This document shows positions 24,531 to 64,000 of a DNA stretch of 64,000 nt, piece after piece. A model generated the notes under the pieces. It saw nothing but the letters and a program-made list of their open reading frames with translations, did no database searches and was not told the DNA's origin. The stretch covers positions 1,140 to 65,139 of the forward strand of contig JAEEJO010000077.1 of the NCBI GenBank assembly GCA_016281915.1, in the 5' to 3' direction. The stretch is from Clostridiales bacterium. GTDB lineage: Bacteria > Bacillota > Clostridia > Oscillospirales > UBA644. The position numbers and the translations under genes are program-made. How positions within the stretch are numbered: the first letter of the stretch is position 1; the number at the start of each line of letters is the position of its first letter.

Positions 24531-24580
24531 GATAAATGTGGAATTGTAAACAGTATTTTTTCGTGTTTCGGAGAATTATT

Positions 24581-25186
24581 ATGAAAAACAGATTTGCCGT
24601 ATATCTTGTTCTCGGTATCTTTCAGATAATATCGGGGCTTTTGGGCTCATATTTTGTTTTTGTCGTTTCCGGCGCATTCATGCTTTTCAAAGCTCTCTCC
24701 GAATTTGCTCGCAGCGCAAAAACACCTCTCAGGATCATTATTTGTTCCGTTTTTGCCCTCCTTGATCTTTATTGCCTTTATTATTCGTTTATAATGCTCA
24801 TTTCTCAGATAGATTACGCCGCATTCCGTCCAGCAACATGGATCGTTATTCCCATTGCGGTAACACTGATAACGTTGATAGCACTGTTTGTCTTTTCTAA
24901 AGACGCTGCATCCGACCCTGATACGACCGATAACTCGGCTGCAATAATTCAGACTGAGAGCTCGATTGAAGACCTTACTGTTTTTGTCCTCATCTTCATC
25001 GGATGGATCGGCACCTTCGTTTTTGAGTTTTTCTTTGAATATTCCGCCGCATTCTGCATCGCGGTATGCCTGCTGAAAAACGTATATAAAACACTTTTTC
25101 CCAAACAAACAAAAACCACAACAACACAGTTATCCGAACAGCAGACTATTTCACCTGTTTCGGATCAGCCCGTAAAGGAAACATGA
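24581..25186 (+). CDS. Polytopic membrane protein of unknown function
   Basis: About 5-6 hydrophobic helices and a Thr/Gln-rich C-terminal tail. Start at ATG 24581, downstream of the promoter. The stop lies 1 nt before the mreB ATG. Confidence 0.55.
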   Translation: MKNRFAVYLVLGIFQIISGLLGSYFVFVVSGAFMLFKALSEFARSAKTPLRIIICSVFALLDLYCLYYSFIMLISQIDYAAFRPATWIVIPIAVTLITLIALFVFSKDAASDPDTTDNSAAIIQTESSIEDLTVFVLIFIGWIGTFVFEFFFEYSAAFCIAVCLLKNVYKTLFPKQTKTTTTQLSEQQTISPVSDQPVKET

Positions 25187-42082: not shown

Positions 42083-43217
42083 TGTCCTCAGCCTCCTTAC
42101 CGCTCTTTGCTTTTATGTTAAAGTGAATTTTATAGTTGATGAAGAATTCGCAGCCTATTATAAAGAAGAGGATTATTCCGGTCAGGATATCCGAAAACGA
42201 CTTGTTCAGACCGAGTGTCATCGAAACGTTTTCCGCGCCTCTGCTGAGTACTACTATCAGAAGTGTTGTGAATATCATGATTATGGGGTTGAATTTTGCA
42301 AGCCATGAAACCATTATGGCGGTAAAACCATTTCCTCCCGCAAGGTTGGGGTCTATAGAATACGAAGTTGCGCCTACAAGAAGAACGCCGATCAGTCCGC
42401 ACAGCGCGCCGGATAAAGCCATTGTCCTGATAATTACCTTTTTAACGTTAATGCCTATATATTTCGCCGTGTTTTCACTTTCACCTACAACTGCGATCTC
42501 ATATCCGTGTTTGCTTCTTTTCAGGTATATATACATCATTACCGTCAGTGCGGTTACAACTATTATATTGAACATATACTGCTGACCGAAAAGAACGGGG
42601 AGTCTGCCGTAAAGAAGAAGGCTCGGACCTACAGTGCTTGAACCGCTTTTATCTGCGACTTTGAGAAAAAACTTTATCAGCTGAATGGCAACGTAGTTCA
42701 TCATCAGCGTAAAAAGCGTTTCGTTCGTTTTCCAGTATGCTTTGAATACGGCGGGAATTATTCCCCATACAGCTCCTGCGGCAACGCCCGCTACAACAAC
42801 AAGTATGCACGCAAGCCAGTGGGGAAGGGGCTGCGCATACATCATAACAAGTGCAGATGCAAGCGCGCCGATAAGAACCTGTCCTTCACCTCCGGTATTC
42901 CAGAATTTCATTTTAAATGCGGGAGTAAGGGCAAGAGCGATACCGAGAAGCATTGCCACTGCCTGTGCGGTTCCCCAGATCCTGAACTGTCCGAACGCGC
43001 CGTCAATAACCGTAGAAAACAGCTCTATCGGGTTCTCGCCCGTTATGAGAACCGTTATTATCGCCGAAAGCGCAAGCGCGGCGATTATTGCTATTACCCT
43101 GACGGCAATATTCCATTTAAGTGAGCTTGCATCACGTTTTGTTATCGTTATGAACGGAGCTGCTTTGGAATGAGTATGTTCTTTTTTTGAAATGGATATC
43201 GCTTTATTCATTTTCAC
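42069..43217 (-). CDS. ABC transporter permease (BMP/nucleoside-type)
   Basis: Polytopic, 382 aa. It overlaps the ATPase gene by 14 nt. Confidence 0.8.
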   Translation of the reverse strand: MKMNKAISISKKEHTHSKAAPFITITKRDASSLKWNIAVRVIAIIAALALSAIITVLITGENPIELFSTVIDGAFGQFRIWGTAQAVAMLLGIALALTPAFKMKFWNTGGEGQVLIGALASALVMMYAQPLPHWLACILVVVAGVAAGAVWGIIPAVFKAYWKTNETLFTLMMNYVAIQLIKFFLKVADKSGSSTVGPSLLLYGRLPVLFGQQYMFNIIVVTALTVMMYIYLKRSKHGYEIAVVGESENTAKYIGINVKKVIIRTMALSGALCGLIGVLLVGATSYSIDPNLAGGNGFTAIMVSWLAKFNPIIMIFTTLLIVVLSRGAENVSMTLGLNKSFSDILTGIILFFIIGCEFFINYKIHFNIKAKSGKEAEDSGNN

Positions 43218-44757
43218 TCACTCCATTCACTTTAGTCATTAATAATCCGATTTCTTCCTTTTTTGCAGTTCTTCCGTCAAGAACTCCAGACACTGTACCG
43301 GAACAAAGAACTAATATCCTGTCGCAAAGCTCGAGTAGAACGTCAAGGTCTTCTCCGACGTAAATTACAGCCACGCCGTTTTCTTTTTGCTTGTTAAGAA
43401 GATTATATATCGTATATGAAGAGTTTATATCAAGCCCGCGAACAGGATATGCGACCATTAGAACGGACGGGGCGGATGCGATCTCTCTTCCTACAAGCAC
43501 TTTTTGAACGTTGCCGCCTGAAAGTCTTCGTACAGGTGTCTGGGCACTCGGAGTAACAACTTCAAGGCTGTTTATGATCTCTTCTGCAAGCTGTTTAGGC
43601 GGCTGTCTGTCAACAAAAACGGATTTGCCTTTCTTATAACTCCTCAGCATCATGTTGTCAATAATATCCATATTGCCTACAAGTCCCATTCCGAGCCTGT
43701 CTTCAGGGACAAATGATAACCTTACGCCGAGTTCGCGTATCTGAAGAGGCGTTTTGCTTCTCAGCTCAACTTTTTCGGAGTCAGAAGGCTTTATATAAAG
43801 AATATTTCCGCTGTCAAGAGTTCTCAGACCTGCAATTGCTTCAAGCAATTCTCTTTGTCCGCTTCCCGCAATACCTGCTATACCGAGGATTTCGCCCGAT
43901 TTCGCGGTAAACGAGATATCTTTGAGCACTTTTACACCGTCCGGACTTGTCAGATTGATACCTGAGACTACAAGTCTGTCCTGAGCGTCTTTAGGGTCCG
44001 ATCTGCCTATATTGAGCGATACTCTTTTGCCTACCATCATCTCGGTGAGTTCGTTTTCACTGGTCTGAGCCGTGTTTACCGTTGCGATATGTTCGCCTTT
44101 TCTTAAAACCGTTACTCTGTCGGAAATAGCAAGTACTTCGTGCAGCTTATGCGTAATAATAAGAATCGATTTTCCGTCATTTCGCATATTGCGAATAACA
44201 TCAAACAGCTTCTCTGTCTCCTGCGGGGTGAGCACGGCTGTCGGTTCGTCAAGGATAAGTATGTCGGCTCCGCGGTATAATACTTTTATTATTTCAACGG
44301 TCTGTTTTTCTGAAACAGACATTTCATATATTTTCTTTTGCGGATTGAGTATGAATCCGTATTTTTCGGAGATTTTTTTGACCTCTTCTTCGGCTTTGGC
44401 AAGATTGTATTTTGTTCCGTCGTTTATGCCGAGAATGATATTTTCCGTAGCGGTAAACAGATCAACAAGCTTAAAGTGCTGGTGGACCATACCTATTCTG
44501 TATCTGAAAGCGTCTTTAGGTGAGTTGATAGATGCTTTTTCGCCGTTAACGTATATCTCTCCGCTGTCCGGATGGTATATTCCGGCGATCATGTTCATCA
44601 GCGTCGTCTTGCCGCTTCCGTTTTCACCGAGAATGGCAAGGACTTCACCGTAACGGACGTCAAGATCTACGTCTTTATTTGCAATTACCTTGCTTCCGAA
44701 GGCTTTTGTTACCTTTCGCAGCTGCAGCGCATATTTTTCGTTGACCGTTTCCGACAT
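43204..44757 (-). CDS. ABC transporter ATP-binding protein with tandem NBDs
   Basis: GENGSGKTT Walker A, LSVSEKQ signature, ILILDEPT Walker B, and a second degenerate NBD (GIAGSGQRE, LSGGNVQK). Confidence 0.9.
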   Translation of the reverse strand: MSETVNEKYALQLRKVTKAFGSKVIANKDVDLDVRYGEVLAILGENGSGKTTLMNMIAGIYHPDSGEIYVNGEKASINSPKDAFRYRIGMVHQHFKLVDLFTATENIILGINDGTKYNLAKAEEEVKKISEKYGFILNPQKKIYEMSVSEKQTVEIIKVLYRGADILILDEPTAVLTPQETEKLFDVIRNMRNDGKSILIITHKLHEVLAISDRVTVLRKGEHIATVNTAQTSENELTEMMVGKRVSLNIGRSDPKDAQDRLVVSGINLTSPDGVKVLKDISFTAKSGEILGIAGIAGSGQRELLEAIAGLRTLDSGNILYIKPSDSEKVELRSKTPLQIRELGVRLSFVPEDRLGMGLVGNMDIIDNMMLRSYKKGKSVFVDRQPPKQLAEEIINSLEVVTPSAQTPVRRLSGGNVQKVLVGREIASAPSVLMVAYPVRGLDINSSYTIYNLLNKQKENGVAVIYVGEDLDVLLELCDRILVLCSGTVSGVLDGRTAKKEEIGLLMTKVNGVSENE

Positions 44758-52125: not shown

Positions 52126-53061
52126 TCATTTGCCGCGTTTAAAACAAAGAAGGGTTCCCGTAAAAGATATGCTCAGAATAAGAGGGAAAAGAACGGAGAG
52201 ATCGGAAGTTGACGGATTTTTTTCTGCCGTTGCTTTTTTATCATACGTTTCGAAGTAAAATAACTCATAATCATTTTTAAAGGTGGTTTGAGCTATTCTC
52301 CAGCCGTTTTCCGTGTAAAAAAAGCCTACGTAGAAATCATCATACGCTCCCACACCATCAAGGTCGTGCATATCGTTATCAAATTGAATAGTAACACGGT
52401 ATAAATGCCATAATCCGTTTTCGGAAGCAAAAACCTCGGTAACAGCAAAATTTTCGGAGTCAAATGTGAACTGCGCAACTTTTCCGCCAATATCATAAAG
52501 CTCATTTCCGAATGAAGTGATAGTTGTGTCTTGAAGATAATGTTCGGCGATGTTTTTCGTAAATACTGTTTTCAGATAATCCGTAAATTTAGCGGCTGTT
52601 GAAAAATCATCAAGCAGGGGGTATTTTTCGATTCCGTAATCATTTATCGGAGTTTTTGTATAATCAAGTATTTCGGTGTTGTCGTAAAGGTCTGTTTTAA
52701 AAAGCCATAACCTTTTTGATATCATTGTTCTTGCTTCGTCCAAAGACAGGCCGGACGGTGTCTTCTCTGGAAGATAATTCATTATTCCGTCTTCGGAAAT
52801 CTTAACTTTTACGCAGACGTCGATATAATCAATAGGTTCATTTCCTATATCCAGGCTTTTTATGGAAACTACGGTAAGAACGGCGTTCTCTGCATCATAG
52901 TAAAACTTGATTCTTTCGGCATTTTCAAATTGCCTGGAATTCGATACTACTTTTGATACGGTATCATTCATTGTTTCCGCGCAGAAAAACGAGGTGAACA
53001 GGAAAACAGAAAGCATTGCAACCGATACTGTCAGAGCAATGGTTTTAAGAATTTGTTTCAT
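52126..53061 (-). CDS. Secreted protein of unknown function with a C-terminal NPSTSD-SVLF-TM-KRGK anchor
   Basis: N-terminal signal/TM (IALTVSVAMLSVFLFTSFFCA), a roughly 250-aa domain I do not recognise, and the C-terminal 30 aa NPSTSDLSVLFPLILSISFTGTLLCFKRGK. Confidence 0.6.
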   Translation of the reverse strand: MKQILKTIALTVSVAMLSVFLFTSFFCAETMNDTVSKVVSNSRQFENAERIKFYYDAENAVLTVVSIKSLDIGNEPIDYIDVCVKVKISEDGIMNYLPEKTPSGLSLDEARTMISKRLWLFKTDLYDNTEILDYTKTPINDYGIEKYPLLDDFSTAAKFTDYLKTVFTKNIAEHYLQDTTITSFGNELYDIGGKVAQFTFDSENFAVTEVFASENGLWHLYRVTIQFDNDMHDLDGVGAYDDFYVGFFYTENGWRIAQTTFKNDYELFYFETYDKKATAEKNPSTSDLSVLFPLILSISFTGTLLCFKRGK

Positions 53062-53085
53062 TTTTCCCTCCTTGTTATAAAATGA

Positions 53086-54225
<1,140 letters not shown>

Positions 54226-54239
54226 TCAGATCAATGAAT

Positions 54240-55280
54240 TCATCCTATAAACATCGCATCTCCGAAAGAGAAAAACCTGTATTTTTCTTTTACAGCTTCG
54301 TTATAGGCATTAAGGACGTTTTCGCGGCCTGCAAGAGCCGATACCAGCATTATCAGCGTGCTTTCAGGAAGGTGAAAATTCGTTATAAGTCTGTCTATGA
54401 CTTTAAATTCATAGGGAGGATAAATAAAAATATCCGTTTCTCCCGACATTTCGGAAAGATTGAAATTGTCTTTTGTAAAACCAAGCCTGCTGCCGGCTGT
54501 TTCAAGCGTTCTTGTGCAGGTCGTTCCTACTGCGGTAACTCTGTGTCCGTTTCTTTTGGCTCTGTTTATTATCTCAGCGGTCTTTTCCGGCAGGATGAAA
54601 AACTCGGAATGCATCTTATGCTCTTCGATTTTTTCGGTTTTTACCGGTCTGAACGTTCCGAGACCGACGTGAAGAGTTACAAACCCGATTTCAACACCCT
54701 TTGAGCGAAGTTCGTCAAGCAGTTCCTCGGTAAAATGAAGCCCCGCCGTGGGTGCTGCGACAGAACCGTCGTATTTTGCATAAACTGTCTGATATCTCCC
54801 GTAATCATCCTGTTTTTCATGTATATACGGCGGAAGCGGGATCTCTCCTATATCATTCAGCTTGTCCCTGAAATCTCCTTCAAAATTAAAACGTACAGCC
54901 CTGTTTCCGCTTTCGAATACTTCCGTTACTTCTCCGGAGATCCCTTTAACGTCGATCTCCGTTCCCTTTTTCATTTTCCTTCCGGGTTTTACAAGACATT
55001 CCCATGTGTTCGAATTGTCAAGAGGTCTGAGAAGAAAAACCTCGATCTCCGCGCCGTCTTCCTTCCTTTTTGCAAACAGTCTGGCAGGTATTACGCGTGA
55101 GTCGTTGAGTATGAGACAATCTCCGGGAACAAATTCACCAAGTATATCTCTGAATGTTCCGTGCCTTATTGCGCCTGTTTCTTTATCGAGAAACATTAGT
55201 CTTGACATATCTCTCTTCTCAGCAGGATGCTGCGCTATAAGCTCCTGCGGAAGATCATAATAAAAATCTTTAAGATCCAT
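54240..55280 (-). CDS. queA: S-adenosylmethionine:tRNA ribosyltransferase-isomerase
   Basis: [35 protein letters not shown]. Start moved to ATG 55280 (GAGGA RBS), because the listed start at 55343 overlaps the asd promoter -35. Confidence 0.9.
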
Positions 55281-55336
55281 TATATCCTCAGTTTCGGTTA
55301 GCTTTATGTCATTTGTTAAAATTTTTATTTTCGGTG

Positions 55337-55365
55337 TTGACATATCACTTAAAATCTGTTATACT
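55337..55365 (+). promoter_or_regulatory. Sigma-A-type promoter for the L-box/asd operon
   Basis: TTGACA, 17 bp, TATACT, 13 nt upstream of the riboswitch P1. Confidence 0.55.
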
Positions 55366-60773: not shown

Positions 60774-60786
60774 ATTAAATAAAAAG

Positions 60787-60814
60787 AAAAGGTATAGCCG
60801 AAGCTATACCTTTT
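60787..60814 (-). terminator. Intrinsic terminator after the surface protein gene
   Basis: AAAAGGTATAGC / GCTATACCTTTT perfect stem with a CGAA loop and A/T runs on both sides. Confidence 0.75.
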
Positions 60815-60835
60815 CGTATGTAGTTTAACTACAAC

Positions 60836-61858
60836 TTATTTTCTCTTGAATACAGAGATACCACCGATAGCGGAAACAGCAGCGAGAGCGTAGAAGAGAA
60901 CGCTTACGTCAGCAGTCTTCGGGTTGGTGTTGGTTGTTGTTGTGGGAGCCGGAGTTACTGTTTCAGCAGCGGGCTCTTCAGCAGCGGGTTCTTCTGCAGC
61001 GGGCTCTTCTGCAGCGGGCTCTTCAGCAGCAGGTTCTTCTGCAGCGGGCTCTTCAGCAGCGGGTTCTTCAGCAGCAGGTTCTTCAGCAGCAGCTTCAGCG
61101 AAAACGAGCATCGGAGAGTTTGTCGGGGTCTTACCAGCCCAGAGAACGCCCTGGCCCATTTCAGCGTAGAAGGAACCGTCAGAAATGAATGCTACAGAGA
61201 TGAGGTATTCGTCGTCAACAGCACCGGCAGAACCGAGAGCGTCAGCGAGGGGGATAGCGATTTCATAGCACTGGTTGAGGCCGTCAACAGCGCATTTACC
61301 CATCATGCCTTCGTTAACTGTTGCAGAGTCAGCAGCATCGGGCATAGACTGTTCGAATGTGTTGAAGTAAAGCTCGGTAGCGTCCTGGTTACCGTTGATA
61401 CCGAATCCGAGATGCGGGTCATTGTACATGTCGCCGTCACCGTCATCGAGACCAATGTAGAACTGGAAGCAGTCAGTGCCTGCAGACCAGAGGGCAGAAC
61501 CGTCAACTTCGGAAGCATAAACTTTAGCAGCTTTGATAGCTACATAAAGATATTCTTCATCCCATTTGAACCAGTAGTCAACAGTAGCGTTCATAGCGTT
61601 AGCATCATCAAGGAATGTGCCGTCAGTCGGGTGAACGAGCTGAGGATCTTCCGCACGGCTGGAACCGATTACATGGATAGAGCTTTCGCCCCATGCATCT
61701 TCGATAACACCGTCAAGAACGAGTGCATTTGTACGCTTGGGAACTTTGATGAGTTCGGGGACGATTTCGTCTGTGCCCTGCCATACTTCTGCGAAAGCAG
61801 GAACAACACAGCAAATCATCATTGCAACAGTAATAACTGCAGCTAAGATTTTTTTCAT
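60836..61858 (-). CDS. Secreted surface protein: CBM9-like domain, (EEPAA)x8 linker, C-terminal NPKTAD-SVLF-TM-KRK anchor
   Basis: Signal peptide MKKILAAVITVAMMICCVVPAFA (start 61858 after AAAGGAG). LVLDGVIEDAWGES...DYWFKWDEEYLYVAIKA resembles CBM9/DOMON-like sugar-binding modules. Then come an acidic Pro/Ala repeat, a Thr-rich stretch, and the anchor NPKTADVSVLFYALAAVSAIGGISVFKRK. Confidence 0.7.
   Translation of the reverse strand: MKKILAAVITVAMMICCVVPAFAEVWQGTDEIVPELIKVPKRTNALVLDGVIEDAWGESSIHVIGSSRAEDPQLVHPTDGTFLDDANAMNATVDYWFKWDEEYLYVAIKAAKVYASEVDGSALWSAGTDCFQFYIGLDDGDGDMYNDPHLGFGINGNQDATELYFNTFEQSMPDAADSATVNEGMMGKCAVDGLNQCYEIAIPLADALGSAGAVDDEYLISVAFISDGSFYAEMGQGVLWAGKTPTNSPMLVFAEAAAEEPAAEEPAAEEPAAEEPAAEEPAAEEPAAEEPAAEEPAAETVTPAPTTTTNTNPKTADVSVLFYALAAVSAIGGISVFKRK
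60965..61084 (-). repeat. Eight tandem 15-bp in-frame repeats encoding (EEPAA)8
   Basis: Plus-strand units are [C/T][A/T]GCAGC[G/A]GG[C/T]TCTT with period 15. All inter-copy differences fall at codon third positions (GAA/GAG, CCC/CCT, GCT/GCA). Confidence 0.95.
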
Positions 61859-61908
61859 AAGGTTTTTCACTCCTTTTAGTATTAAAGAGATTTTTCTCTT
61901 CATTGAAT

Positions 61909-61937
61909 ATTCTACACTAAAAACCTGTTTTTGTCAA
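61909..61937 (-). promoter_or_regulatory. Sigma-A-type promoter for the surface protein gene
   Basis: Minus strand: TTGACA, 17 bp, TAGAAT. Confidence 0.55.
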
Positions 61938-62287: not shown

Positions 62288-62375
62288 ATAAAATGTATAT
62301 GTTTGTGCTCTTATCAGCATTTCGTATTTCAGATCATTTATCATTAATGTTTTACTTAAACGGGAACAGGAAATA

Positions 62376-64000
62376 ATGAGAAACATAGGAAAACACAGCT
62401 CTGATTCTGATTCGAATATCTTTTCCGGAATTGCGGACGCATTCCGTTCATTAAAAAACGGATCTGCGTCACGTTCTGTCGGCAATCAGAAAAAAGAGAA
62501 TGATTCTTCTTCGAAAGAAAACCCTGAATTTTCCGATAACTTATCCGGCAGCAATGAGCAGGACGCATCTGTCAGCTCTGATTCGGAAATTTTAAATGAC
62601 GAAAGCTTTTCATCCGATCCGTCCATTTACGAAGAATTCAGCGATGTATTCAATACCGACGATTCCTCAGACGATGATTATCGGGATGAGTTTTCGAGGG
62701 ATTACTATGCAAAAAATTCTGCTGATACCTCAGATGATAAGCCCGATCTTTCCGATTATTATTCTCCTTACGATATAGGGGACGGTGTATCGGACGGAGA
62801 TGTCTCTCTGCCATCTGAAAATGAATTGAATGATATCGCCGCTGATGACGGCCGCGAAAACATATTTACTGATTCCGCCGCGACAGACGCCTTGTCTTTA
62901 TCAGAAGCTCAGCCTCCGTTTACTGAAAACAGTTCAGCCGCTTCCGATATGACTGTCACCGCGTCTTTGGGTCCTCGCGCCGCACGACTTGCGCGTTTTA
63001 AGACCGAAACAGACTCTTCTTCGCATGACGAGATCCTGGCGTCCGAAGAGTCTTCCCGCACGTCTGAACAAAAAACTTCCGCCGCTCAGGTCGAAAATGA
63101 GAAAAAAAGACCGAATACGCGTGAATCCGTTGCCGAAAAACCGAAAAAATCCGATACACAGGTTTCTACGTCAAATAAGCAAAAGAAAAAAGGCGGAGTC
63201 GAAGTAGTGGAAGACGACCGTCCTCTGTGGGAGAAGAATCCTGAAAAATACAGAAAGAAGAAACCGTTTTTTATACGCCTTCTCGGCGGTATTTGGTCCT
63301 TTATATTTTTCTGGATCCTGACGGGCGCCGTTTTTGGAGTTATAGGCGTAGGCCTTGGCGTTACTCTCGTTTACTCGTTTACCGATCCCGAGCTTGACAT
63401 CAAACTTGCAAGTCTCGATATCGATTATACGTCACAGATCCTTGCAACCGATTCGTCGGGCGAGATCGTTGTTTATGAGGAGCTTTACAGCACCGCAAAC
63501 CGCGTCTGGGTTTCCATAAACGATATGCCCAAAGAACTTCTCGACGCCACCGTCGCGATTGAGGACAAACGTTTCTATGAACACAAGGGCGTTGACCTTG
63601 TTACAACCATCAGAGCTACTATATCTTATATTATTGACCGAATCCGAGGCAGGTCCGAGATCGGCGCCGGCGGTTCTACGCTTACTCAGCAGCTCATAAA
63701 GGTTATAACGCAGGACAATGCCGTCAAAGGAACCGCGGGACTTCAGCGAAAAGCCAAAGAGATCCTTCGTGCTTTCTATATTGAACGAAAATACAGCAAA
63801 GACCAGATACTTGAGTATTATCTCAATACCGTCAACTTCGGTTACCAGTATGAGGGCATTTATACCGCCGCAAAATCTTATTTCGGCAAGGAGCCCAAAG
63901 ATCTGACTCTTGCCGAATGTGCGACCATAGTCGCCGTTACAAACTGGCCTTCATATTATAATCCGTATGAGAGTATGGAAAACAACAGATCGAGACGTCT
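62376..64000 (+). CDS. Class A penicillin-binding protein (GT51 transglycosylase domain visible); 3' end outside the window
   Basis: This ORF is absent from the ORF track because it has no stop before the window end; I translated it by hand from ATG 62376. It has a ~297-aa Ser/Asp/Glu-rich tail, a TM (FFIRLLGGIWSFIFFWILTGAVFGVIGVGLGV), then the GT51 motifs EDKRFYEHKGVD, GGSTLTQQL, RKAKE and QILEYYLN. Confidence 0.85.
   Translation, partial: MRNIGKHSSDSDSNIFSGIADAFRSLKNGSASRSVGNQKKENDSSSKENPEFSDNLSGSNEQDASVSSDSEILNDESFSSDPSIYEEFSDVFNTDDSSDDDYRDEFSRDYYAKNSADTSDDKPDLSDYYSPYDIGDGVSDGDVSLPSENELNDIAADDGRENIFTDSAATDALSLSEAQPPFTENSSAASDMTVTASLGPRAARLARFKTETDSSSHDEILASEESSRTSEQKTSAAQVENEKKRPNTRESVAEKPKKSDTQVSTSNKQKKKGGVEVVEDDRPLWEKNPEKYRKKKPFFIRLLGGIWSFIFFWILTGAVFGVIGVGLGVTLVYSFTDPELDIKLASLDIDYTSQILATDSSGEIVVYEELYSTANRVWVSINDMPKELLDATVAIEDKRFYEHKGVDLVTTIRATISYIIDRIRGRSEIGAGGSTLTQQLIKVITQDNAVKGTAGLQRKAKEILRAFYIERKYSKDQILEYYLNTVNFGYQYEGIYTAAKSYFGKEPKDLTLAECATIVAVTNWPSYYNPYESMENNRSRR

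Follow-up and report, generated by a model that had tools for sequence, protein, structure and literature searches.

A C-terminal NPxTxD tail shared by unrelated secreted proteins of a Clostridiales genome is a candidate class-B-like sortase signal with a relaxed P1' position

A stretch of 64,000 nucleotides from the genome of an uncultured Clostridiales bacterium of the rumen (contig JAEEJO010000077.1 of assembly GCA_016281915.1, positions 1,140 to 65,139 of the forward strand; the window in the following) encodes two secreted proteins that end in the same type of C-terminal tail, a motif N-P-x-T-x-D followed by a hydrophobic helix and a basic end. The first carrier (protein A) is a CBM9-type protein and the second (protein B) is an IseA-like protein. 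Judged from sequence conservation, the tail is on balance probably a sorting signal of the class B sortase type with a relaxed, non-Gly P1' position, which would anchor CBM9 proteins, a C10 peptidase, and the IseA-like protein to the cell wall. The sortase-B-type reading is favored in part because the four invariant residues of the tail (N, P, T, and D) are the residues on which Bacillus anthracis SrtB depends. The two genes and the elements of their tails are as follows, with helix residues taken from AlphaFold models of both proteins that were built on family alignments.

60836..61858, minus strand: protein A gene, 340 amino acids plus stop, a secreted CBM9-fold protein with a C-terminal NPKTAD tail
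60908..60925, minus strand: protein A motif N-P-K-T-A-D (P4-P3-P2-P1-P1'-P2'), with N, P, T, and D conserved and a predicted scissile bond between Thr and Ala
60848..60907, minus strand: protein A hydrophobic helix VSVLFYALAAVSAIGGISVF (model helix residues 318-334)
60839..60847, minus strand: protein A basic stop-transfer tail KRK (stop codon at 60836-60838)
52126..53061, minus strand: protein B gene, 311 amino acids plus stop, a secreted IseA-like protein with a C-terminal NPSTSD tail
52201..52218, minus strand: protein B motif N-P-S-T-S-D (residues 282-287)
52141..52200, minus strand: protein B hydrophobic helix LSVLFPLILSISFTGTLLCF (model helix residues 288-309)
52129..52140, minus strand: protein B basic tail KRGK (stop codon at 52126-52128)

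Both tails are encoded on the minus strand, and a plus-strand translation of positions 60836-60925 is meaningless. Re-read on the minus strand, the tails are present as an earlier reading of this DNA (the sequence-only reading) had described them: the full tail is NPKTADVSVLFYALAAVSAIGGISVFKRK in protein A (NPKTAD-VSVLFYALAAVSAIGGISVF-KRK) and NPSTSDLSVLFPLILSISFTGTLLCFKRGK in protein B (NPSTSD-LSVLFPLILSISFTGTLLCF-KRGK), and the tripartite layout of a sorting signal that had been seen in them (motif, helix, and basic end) is confirmed. The gapless alignment that had been proposed for the two tails does not hold, as a one-residue gap is needed in the basic tail (KR-K against KRGK). The SVLF block, which the sequence-only reading had included in the shared motif, varies among orthologues that read DVSVVF, DSATLL, or DITLLY at this place and was therefore rejected as part of the signal. 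In both models the predicted helix begins directly after the Asp of the motif. The pattern NP.T.D occurs twice within the 34,339 residues encoded by the open reading frames (ORFs) of the window where 0.17 occurrences are expected, and the two occurrences are the two tails, each located 29-30 residues from the C-terminus and just before the C-terminal helix. The match between the tails of proteins A and B is not a product of chance. A generic scan of the window for a motif, a hydrophobic stretch, and a basic C-terminus returned proteins A and B together with a third ORF of 193 amino acids that lies antisense within 43204..44757; this ORF lacks NPxTxD, ends with RMARTSP, and is regarded as spurious.

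The positions of the tail that are maintained during evolution were identified among 12 homologues of protein B (36-100% identity). The sole invariant columns within the C-terminal ~60 residues are N282, P283, T285, and D287; the helix sequence drifts within the family and a Lys/Arg-rich end is retained. The motif is found as NPSTSD, NPSTAD, NPSTDD, NPATSD, NPSTGD, NPSTCD, and NPSTTD, with S, A, D, G, C, or T at P1'. A Gly at P1' (NPSTGD) is present in P0054 only, and several homologues read D-NPSTGD or D-NPSTTD with an Asp at P5. When 11 tails of the two families are pooled, P, T, and D do not vary and the conservation of N is 90% or higher. The pattern of conservation indicates that, within the protein B family, the motif is the only part of the tail under selection. 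Because only N, P, T, and D survive the divergence of this family, the functional core of the tail would be N-P-x-T-[small]-D together with a helix of ~20 hydrophobic residues and the Lys/Arg-containing basic end. The sequence-only reading had emphasized A or S in place of the Gly at the scissile site, which is correct for the two tails within the window but is not a fixed feature of the signal, since the protein B family also includes NPSTGD; P1' is a relaxed position and not a fixed A/S.

The near-identical helix of the CBM9-type tails appears to be a consequence of concerted evolution and not of a recognition requirement. Within a single genome, the last 90-180 nucleotides of the CBM9-type paralogues (the end of the linker and the tail) are 97-100% identical on the DNA level, and the identity between the CBM9-like paralogues is lost to the random level both upstream of this segment and, on its other side, precisely at the stop codon. 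The tail variants Lys3/Val17 (clade of the window) and Ser3/Ile17 (clade of RGIG8738 and SIG516) track the genome and not the gene family. Taken together, these patterns indicate concerted evolution of a linker and tail cassette among the CBM9-like paralogues within each genome, and gene conversion, as the simplest explanation, is the probable mechanism of the cassette homogenization. The DNA of the protein B tail is outside the linker and tail cassette and shows ordinary divergence. Cassette identity is seen at positions 60839-61020 of the window and, among non-orthologous paralogues, at the loci L001/L005/L007, L002/L004/L006, and L008/L011/L012.

The two cargo proteins are unrelated in fold, as had been proposed from the sequence, because one has a CBM9 fold and the other an IseA-like fold. 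Protein A itself has no Pfam match. An orthologue of protein A (P0006, 55% identical) passes the cut-off of PF06452 (CBM9_1) with 23.7 bits (cut-off 23.4), hhalign pairs the family profile of protein A with relatives that carry CBM9_1 at a probability of 98.6%, and the best PDB matches of the protein A model in a Foldseek search are 7nwn and 1i82 (CBM9; E ~6e-8, target TM-score 0.70). Protein B scores 27.1 bits with PF16800, just under the cut-off of 29.9, and its homologues carry PF16800 in precomputed annotation. The top PDB matches of the protein B model (2rsx, 8wt4, and 8i2e, E 1e-7 to 2e-6, Foldseek) are structures of Bacillus subtilis IseA in its free form and bound to LytE and CwlO. An N-terminal signal peptide is found in protein B as well as in protein A. 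Upstream of the tails, the two proteins are organized as follows (pLDDT, predicted local distance difference test).

61790..61858, minus strand: protein A signal peptide MKKILAAVITVAMMICCVVPAFA, read from the sequence (model helix residues 2-17), with predicted cleavage before EV
61094..61771, minus strand: CBM9-like beta-sandwich of protein A (approximately residues 30-255)
60926..61093, minus strand: Pro/Glu/Ala/Thr-rich disordered spacer of protein A (pLDDT <50 from residue 260 on), with a putative wall-spanning role
52288..52623, minus strand: IseA (DL-endopeptidase inhibitor)-like domain of protein B (residues 147-258)

The spacer between the CBM9 domain and the tail of protein A has a length of ~55 residues and contains an EPAAE repeat, which stems from a tandem repeat of 15 bp in the DNA (8.6 copies, 60962-61090). 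The spacer appears to evolve fast, since both the repeat units (EPEVT, EVEVE, and DTTP) and their copy numbers differ in the protein A orthologues.

By score, the native tails are not members of any curated family, and the only curated models of C-terminal signals that match them at all are models of sortase signals. The native tails that match score 13.6-14.5 bits with srtB_target (TIGR03063, cut-off 18.15), where the sub-threshold matches run from the motif into the first part of the helix, and 13.3-15.1 bits with LPXTG_anchor (TIGR01167, cut-off 15.9); the protein A tail scores 13 bits with Pfam Gram_pos_anchor (PF00746, cut-off 20), and the protein B tail has no match to any of the three. 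As a control, the tail of Staphylococcus aureus IsdC scores 92.9 bits with the NPQTN model. Models of the Firmicu-CTERM (TIGR04145), PEP-CTERM, PGF-CTERM, and GlyGly-CTERM type gave no match to the native tails at E<=10, although the HMMER filters may hide very weak matches, and no match of the native tails was reported for NF033846 (Rumino_NPXTG). The standard LPXTG, sortase-B, and Firmicu-CTERM models all stay below their cut-offs, as expected for the signal outside the known models that the sequence-only reading had envisaged. In silico replacement of the P1' residue by Gly in eight CBM9-type tails raises the LPXTG_anchor score to 15.6-21.2 bits in seven of them (six pass 15.9 and one is just under it) and leaves one variant without an LPXTG_anchor match. 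All eight variants align with NF033846 over positions 1-29 of its 30 positions (12.8-19.2 bits, cut-off 23.5). The higher scores of these variants suggest that the CBM9-type tails are approximately one residue short of recognized sortase-type anchors. A swap of Leu for Asn at P4 raises the LPXTG_anchor score too, which shows that the native tail is not of the LP-type (class D).

A search for homologues of protein A identified a near-identical tail, NP[KS]TADVSVLFYALAA[VI]SAIGGISVFKRK, which is carried by the protein A family, by two other families (~385 and ~400 amino acids), and by a fragment of a peptidase C10. The three larger families are distant CBM9-like paralogues, and the tail is also present on the IseA-like (protein B) family as a whole. 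The sequence-only reading presupposed carriers beyond the two proteins of the window, and the CBM9-like families, the peptidase C10, and the IseA-like family provide them. A profile of the 30-residue tail identified only 15 clusters at E<=1e-3 among 1.84 billion representative proteins, including the divergent tails NPTTADVSVLFYALASVSAVAGLAISKRK, NPGTSDISIIFYALTAISAFGGLSILKRRK, and NPSTADVTAIFYALASVSAIGGLTLIGKKK, mostly on CBM9_1 proteins. In a set of 185,579 species with one genome per species, 17 loci with the tail were found (approximately four carriers per genome), nearly all of them in rumen or gut metagenome-assembled genomes (MAGs) labelled Clostridia, Oscillospiraceae, or Ruminococcaceae and one, a short fragment, labelled Lachnospiraceae. 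A metagenome collection contributed only 15 further loci, mostly copies of the same genomes. A 41-amino acid tail alignment profile returned nothing at E<=10 from a word-indexed database of 5.8 billion proteins, for which the query is too short. Overall, the scans of families, clusters, and genomes indicate a real module with more than one type of cargo and a narrow phylogenetic range.

Three observations were made among the carriers and their neighborhoods. A further, different partial protein from a Clostridia MAG (P0032) ends with SPNTFD-PAIIAAVSAILSLCGFASV-KSRKH after an acidic/Pro linker, which hints at a wider class of xPxTxD tails in the Clostridia. In distant carriers (L019 5413-7448, L037 2847-4729, and L038 1938-3821) the tailed CBM9 gene is located directly downstream of a PocR and AraC-type regulator gene, and this conserved pairing suggests substrate-responsive regulation. 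A conserved protein of ~890-900 amino acids that is encoded near protein A orthologues (L001 939-3611, L003 1042-3756, and L011 507-3206) ends with a plain hydrophobic helix and KK without NPxTxD, indicating that simple C-terminal membrane anchors are also used by these genomes.

A partner enzyme was searched for within the window and within 45 loci retrieved around the carriers (partly redundant, ~510 kb in total) using a TLxTC-type regular expression, phmmer with S. aureus SrtA and SrtB, and the precomputed Pfam annotation of the neighborhoods. The window contains no sortase or exosortase gene according to the regular expression, phmmer, and Pfam searches of the polytopic ORFs, in agreement with the sequence-only reading, and the precomputed Pfam annotation of the carrier neighborhoods contains no PF04203. 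Twelve ORFs of the window have three or more predicted membrane segments. Ten of these, which include transporters, a MurJ-like protein, an undecaprenyl-phosphate translocase-like protein, and an RseP-type M50 protease, contain no exosortase, rhomboid, or CPBP protein according to Pfam, and the remaining two are ABC-transporter permeases by matching locus annotation. The annotated carrier neighborhoods are likewise devoid of exosortase, rhomboid, and CPBP genes.

As a sortase signal, the tail would act late in a pathway that starts with Sec export and removal of the signal peptide. The C-terminal helix and KRK would then keep the protein membrane-bound and expose the motif to the outside, consistent with a predicted helix that follows immediately on the Asp. 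A membrane sortase encoded elsewhere in the genome would recognize the P4 Asn, the P3 Pro, the P1 Thr, and the P2' Asp, cleave after the Thr, and transfer the protein to a peptidoglycan precursor. The CBM9 proteins would be displayed on their Pro/Glu/Thr-rich spacer of ~55 residues, and the IseA-like protein, which has almost no spacer, would stay near the membrane, at the site of action of peptidoglycan hydrolases.

The core of class B sortase signals is Asn-Pro-x-Thr. In the tails described here, an N-P-x-T core is located directly before the C-terminal helix and the basic tail, and the Asp at P2' is invariant in the alignments of the 11 tails and the 12 homologues. B. anthracis SrtB, which acts on D-NPKTG-DE with Thr as P1, requires the Asp at P2' and benefits from the Asp at P5, and its activity is lost or strongly lowered when enzyme residues with predicted contacts to the P4 Asn or the P3 Pro are mutated (PMC11987632). 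Several points weigh against a class-B-like sortase signal. The srtB gene of S. aureus is located in the same operon as its substrate gene (PMC8225981), and no sortase-like ORF was identified within the window or the 45 carrier loci by regular expression and phmmer. Furthermore, no native tail attains any curated cut-off, and the protein B tail does not match any model even if it is changed to NPSTGD. The substrate genes of Clostridioides difficile SrtB are dispersed around the genome. This enzyme is a housekeeping class B sortase that acts on several functionally diverse surface proteins (PMC8225981). The single housekeeping SrtB of C. difficile, encoded apart from its substrates, offers a precedent for a non-adjacent sortase. 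The sequence-only reading had left a choice between a variant sortase specificity, which is the option favored here, and a dedicated uncharacterized pathway, for which no positive evidence was obtained.

A rather unlikely alternative is that the tail is a plain uncleaved membrane anchor, with NPxTxD as a conserved juxtamembrane or helix-capping element that is not processed. Such an anchor agrees with the failure to locate a partner enzyme in the window or the carrier loci, with scores below the curated sorting-signal cut-offs, with the motif-less helices at the ends of other surface proteins in related loci (e.g., L001 939-3611), and with the contribution of gene conversion, instead of selection, to much of the identity among protein A-type tails. 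Capping is hard to fit to a protein B helix that drifts freely while N, P, T, and D hold down to 36% identity; moreover, the same four residues are those on which a characterized sortase B depends and the motif recurs on non-homologous cargo. It is more doubtful still that the tails are processed by a dedicated non-sortase sorting enzyme (exosortase/archaeosortase-like, rhombosortase-like, or CPBP-type). The very narrow distribution (15 clusters, 17 loci in 185,579 species genomes, and 15 metagenome loci), the scores below all curated sortase-signal cut-offs, the lack of a sortase near any carrier gene, and the strong conservation of the helix in the CBM9-type tails could be read in this way. 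However, gene conversion explains the conserved helix of the CBM9-type tails, protein B lacks such helix conservation, the invariant residues mirror the determinants of sortase B, the PEP-, PGF-, GlyGly-, and Firmicu-CTERM-type models match no native tail, and neither the polytopic proteins of the window nor the annotated neighborhoods include an exosortase, rhomboid, or CPBP gene.

Small credence is also given to an enzyme of uncharacterized specificity, either a sortase clade that accepts G, A, S, C, T, or D at P1' with a strict Asn at P4 and a strict Asp at P2' or a non-sortase of a small clade of rumen Clostridia; the homogenized helix of the CBM9-type tails would then be part of the recognition. 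Finally, the resemblance of the two tails within the window might reflect chance or a recent DNA transfer of the tail cassette without a shared function. Tail and linker DNA is indeed exchanged among the CBM9-like paralogues of a genome (97-100% identity up to the stop codon), but the DNA of the protein B tail is not part of the cassette, its motif is conserved through an independent orthologous series, and two NP.T.D occurrences against 0.17 expected are found at the same position relative to the helix. This last explanation is very improbable and is already largely refuted.

If the tail is a class-B-like sortase signal, the signals of class B-type sortases would extend to NPxT[A/S/C/T/D]D, a form that escapes the NCBIfam and Pfam models tested, and this would account for the label "hypothetical protein" that these rumen surface proteins receive from annotation pipelines. 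Uncultured rumen Clostridia would furthermore be seen to display a small set of CBM9 glycan-binding proteins on their wall, together with a wall-anchored, IseA-like inhibitor of the hydrolases of peptidoglycan. Users of sortase-mediated ligation could be interested in a sortase with strict P4 and P2' positions and a relaxed P1' position.

Further features were identified around the two carrier genes. The ORF of protein A was called as 61,903 down to its stop codon (60836..61903), and the 15 extra upstream codons at 61859-61903 (MKRKISLILKGVKNL...) are present in none of the homologues, all of which start with MKKIL (61858). The upstream in-frame ATG and the ORF extension overlap the best promoter-like site (61937-61909). 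Because the extension overlaps this site and is absent from all homologues, the real start of protein A is the MKKIL at 61858. The putative regulatory elements of the gene are as follows.

61909..61937, minus strand: promoter-like site upstream of protein A, TTGACA-17-TAGAAT (11/12 consensus matches), a consensus match only
60786..60815, minus strand: terminator-like hairpin and T-run directly 3' of the protein A stop codon, with an equivalent hairpin in orthologous loci

The protein B gene is located 25 nucleotides downstream of tgt, which is preceded by queA on the same strand (52126-55343). The tgt-protein B adjacency, which places the gene of a cell-wall protein beside queuosine genes, is kept in the distant relatives L043, L044, and L045 (with queA where the contig extends far enough). 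Elsewhere in the window, a protein of 216 amino acids (24536..25186) that is predicted to have four membrane segments is without a Pfam match (E<=0.01) and has no evident link to the tail. A long ORF on the plus strand that runs off the end of the window (62292-64000) encodes a highly acidic, Ser/Asp-rich disordered N-terminus (~400 residues) that is followed by a single membrane helix and the first part of an extracellular domain; as a guess, it is a penicillin-binding-protein-like protein.

Literature searches for NPxTA/NPxTS-type signals or for this particular signal returned nothing relevant, and the tails were compared with the known sorting systems. The class B signals (D-NPKTG-DE of B. 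anthracis IsdC and NPQTN of S. aureus IsdC) have the Asn-Pro-x-Thr core, the hydrophobic helix, and the basic tail in common with the tails described here, and they also share the P2' Asp that is required by B. anthracis SrtB and a small number of substrates per genome. They differ in the P1' residue (G or N in the known signals, A or S within the window, and S, A, D, G, C, or T across the protein B family), in the cargo (NEAT/heme proteins in contrast to CBM9 and IseA-like proteins), and in the location of srtB, which is typically but not universally adjacent to the substrate genes, whereas no adjacent gene is found here. The model NF033846 (Rumino_NPXTG, "NPXTG-anchored protein") describes the 30 C-terminal positions of a signal with which the CBM9-type tails align end to end once P1' is changed to Gly; it has a Gly at P1' where protein A has A and protein B has S. 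Its link to Ruminococcus, a relative within the Clostridia, is suggested by the model name only, and no paper describing the model was found.

The substrates of C. difficile SrtB carry (S/P)PxTG and are recognized by a class B enzyme of the Clostridia; the SPNTFD, helix, and basic tail of P0032 resemble them, whereas their P4 and P1' residues are unlike those of the present tails. The class D signals (LPNTA of B. anthracis SrtC and LPDTA and LPDTS of B. subtilis YhcS) resemble the present tails in their small number of substrates and in the Ala or Ser that directly follows the scissile Thr at P1', but have Leu at P4 where the present tails have Asn. The canonical LPXTG anchor (TIGR01167/PF00746) has the same tripartite architecture, to which the near-threshold scores correspond, but its LPXTG pentapeptide is not present in these tails. 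The features that the sequence-only reading had called non-canonical are already part of sortase biology: beside the NPxT core of class B, non-Gly residues at P1' are known from NPQTN (S. aureus), LPNTA (B. anthracis SrtC), and LPDTA/LPDTS (B. subtilis) (PMC8225981). The invariance of the Asp, which the same reading had reported, was confirmed, but this residue is not a departure from known signals, as it corresponds to the P2' Asp that is needed by B. anthracis SrtB (PMC11987632). The biological surprise is therefore limited, because every unusual feature of the tail has a precedent in known sortase substrates.

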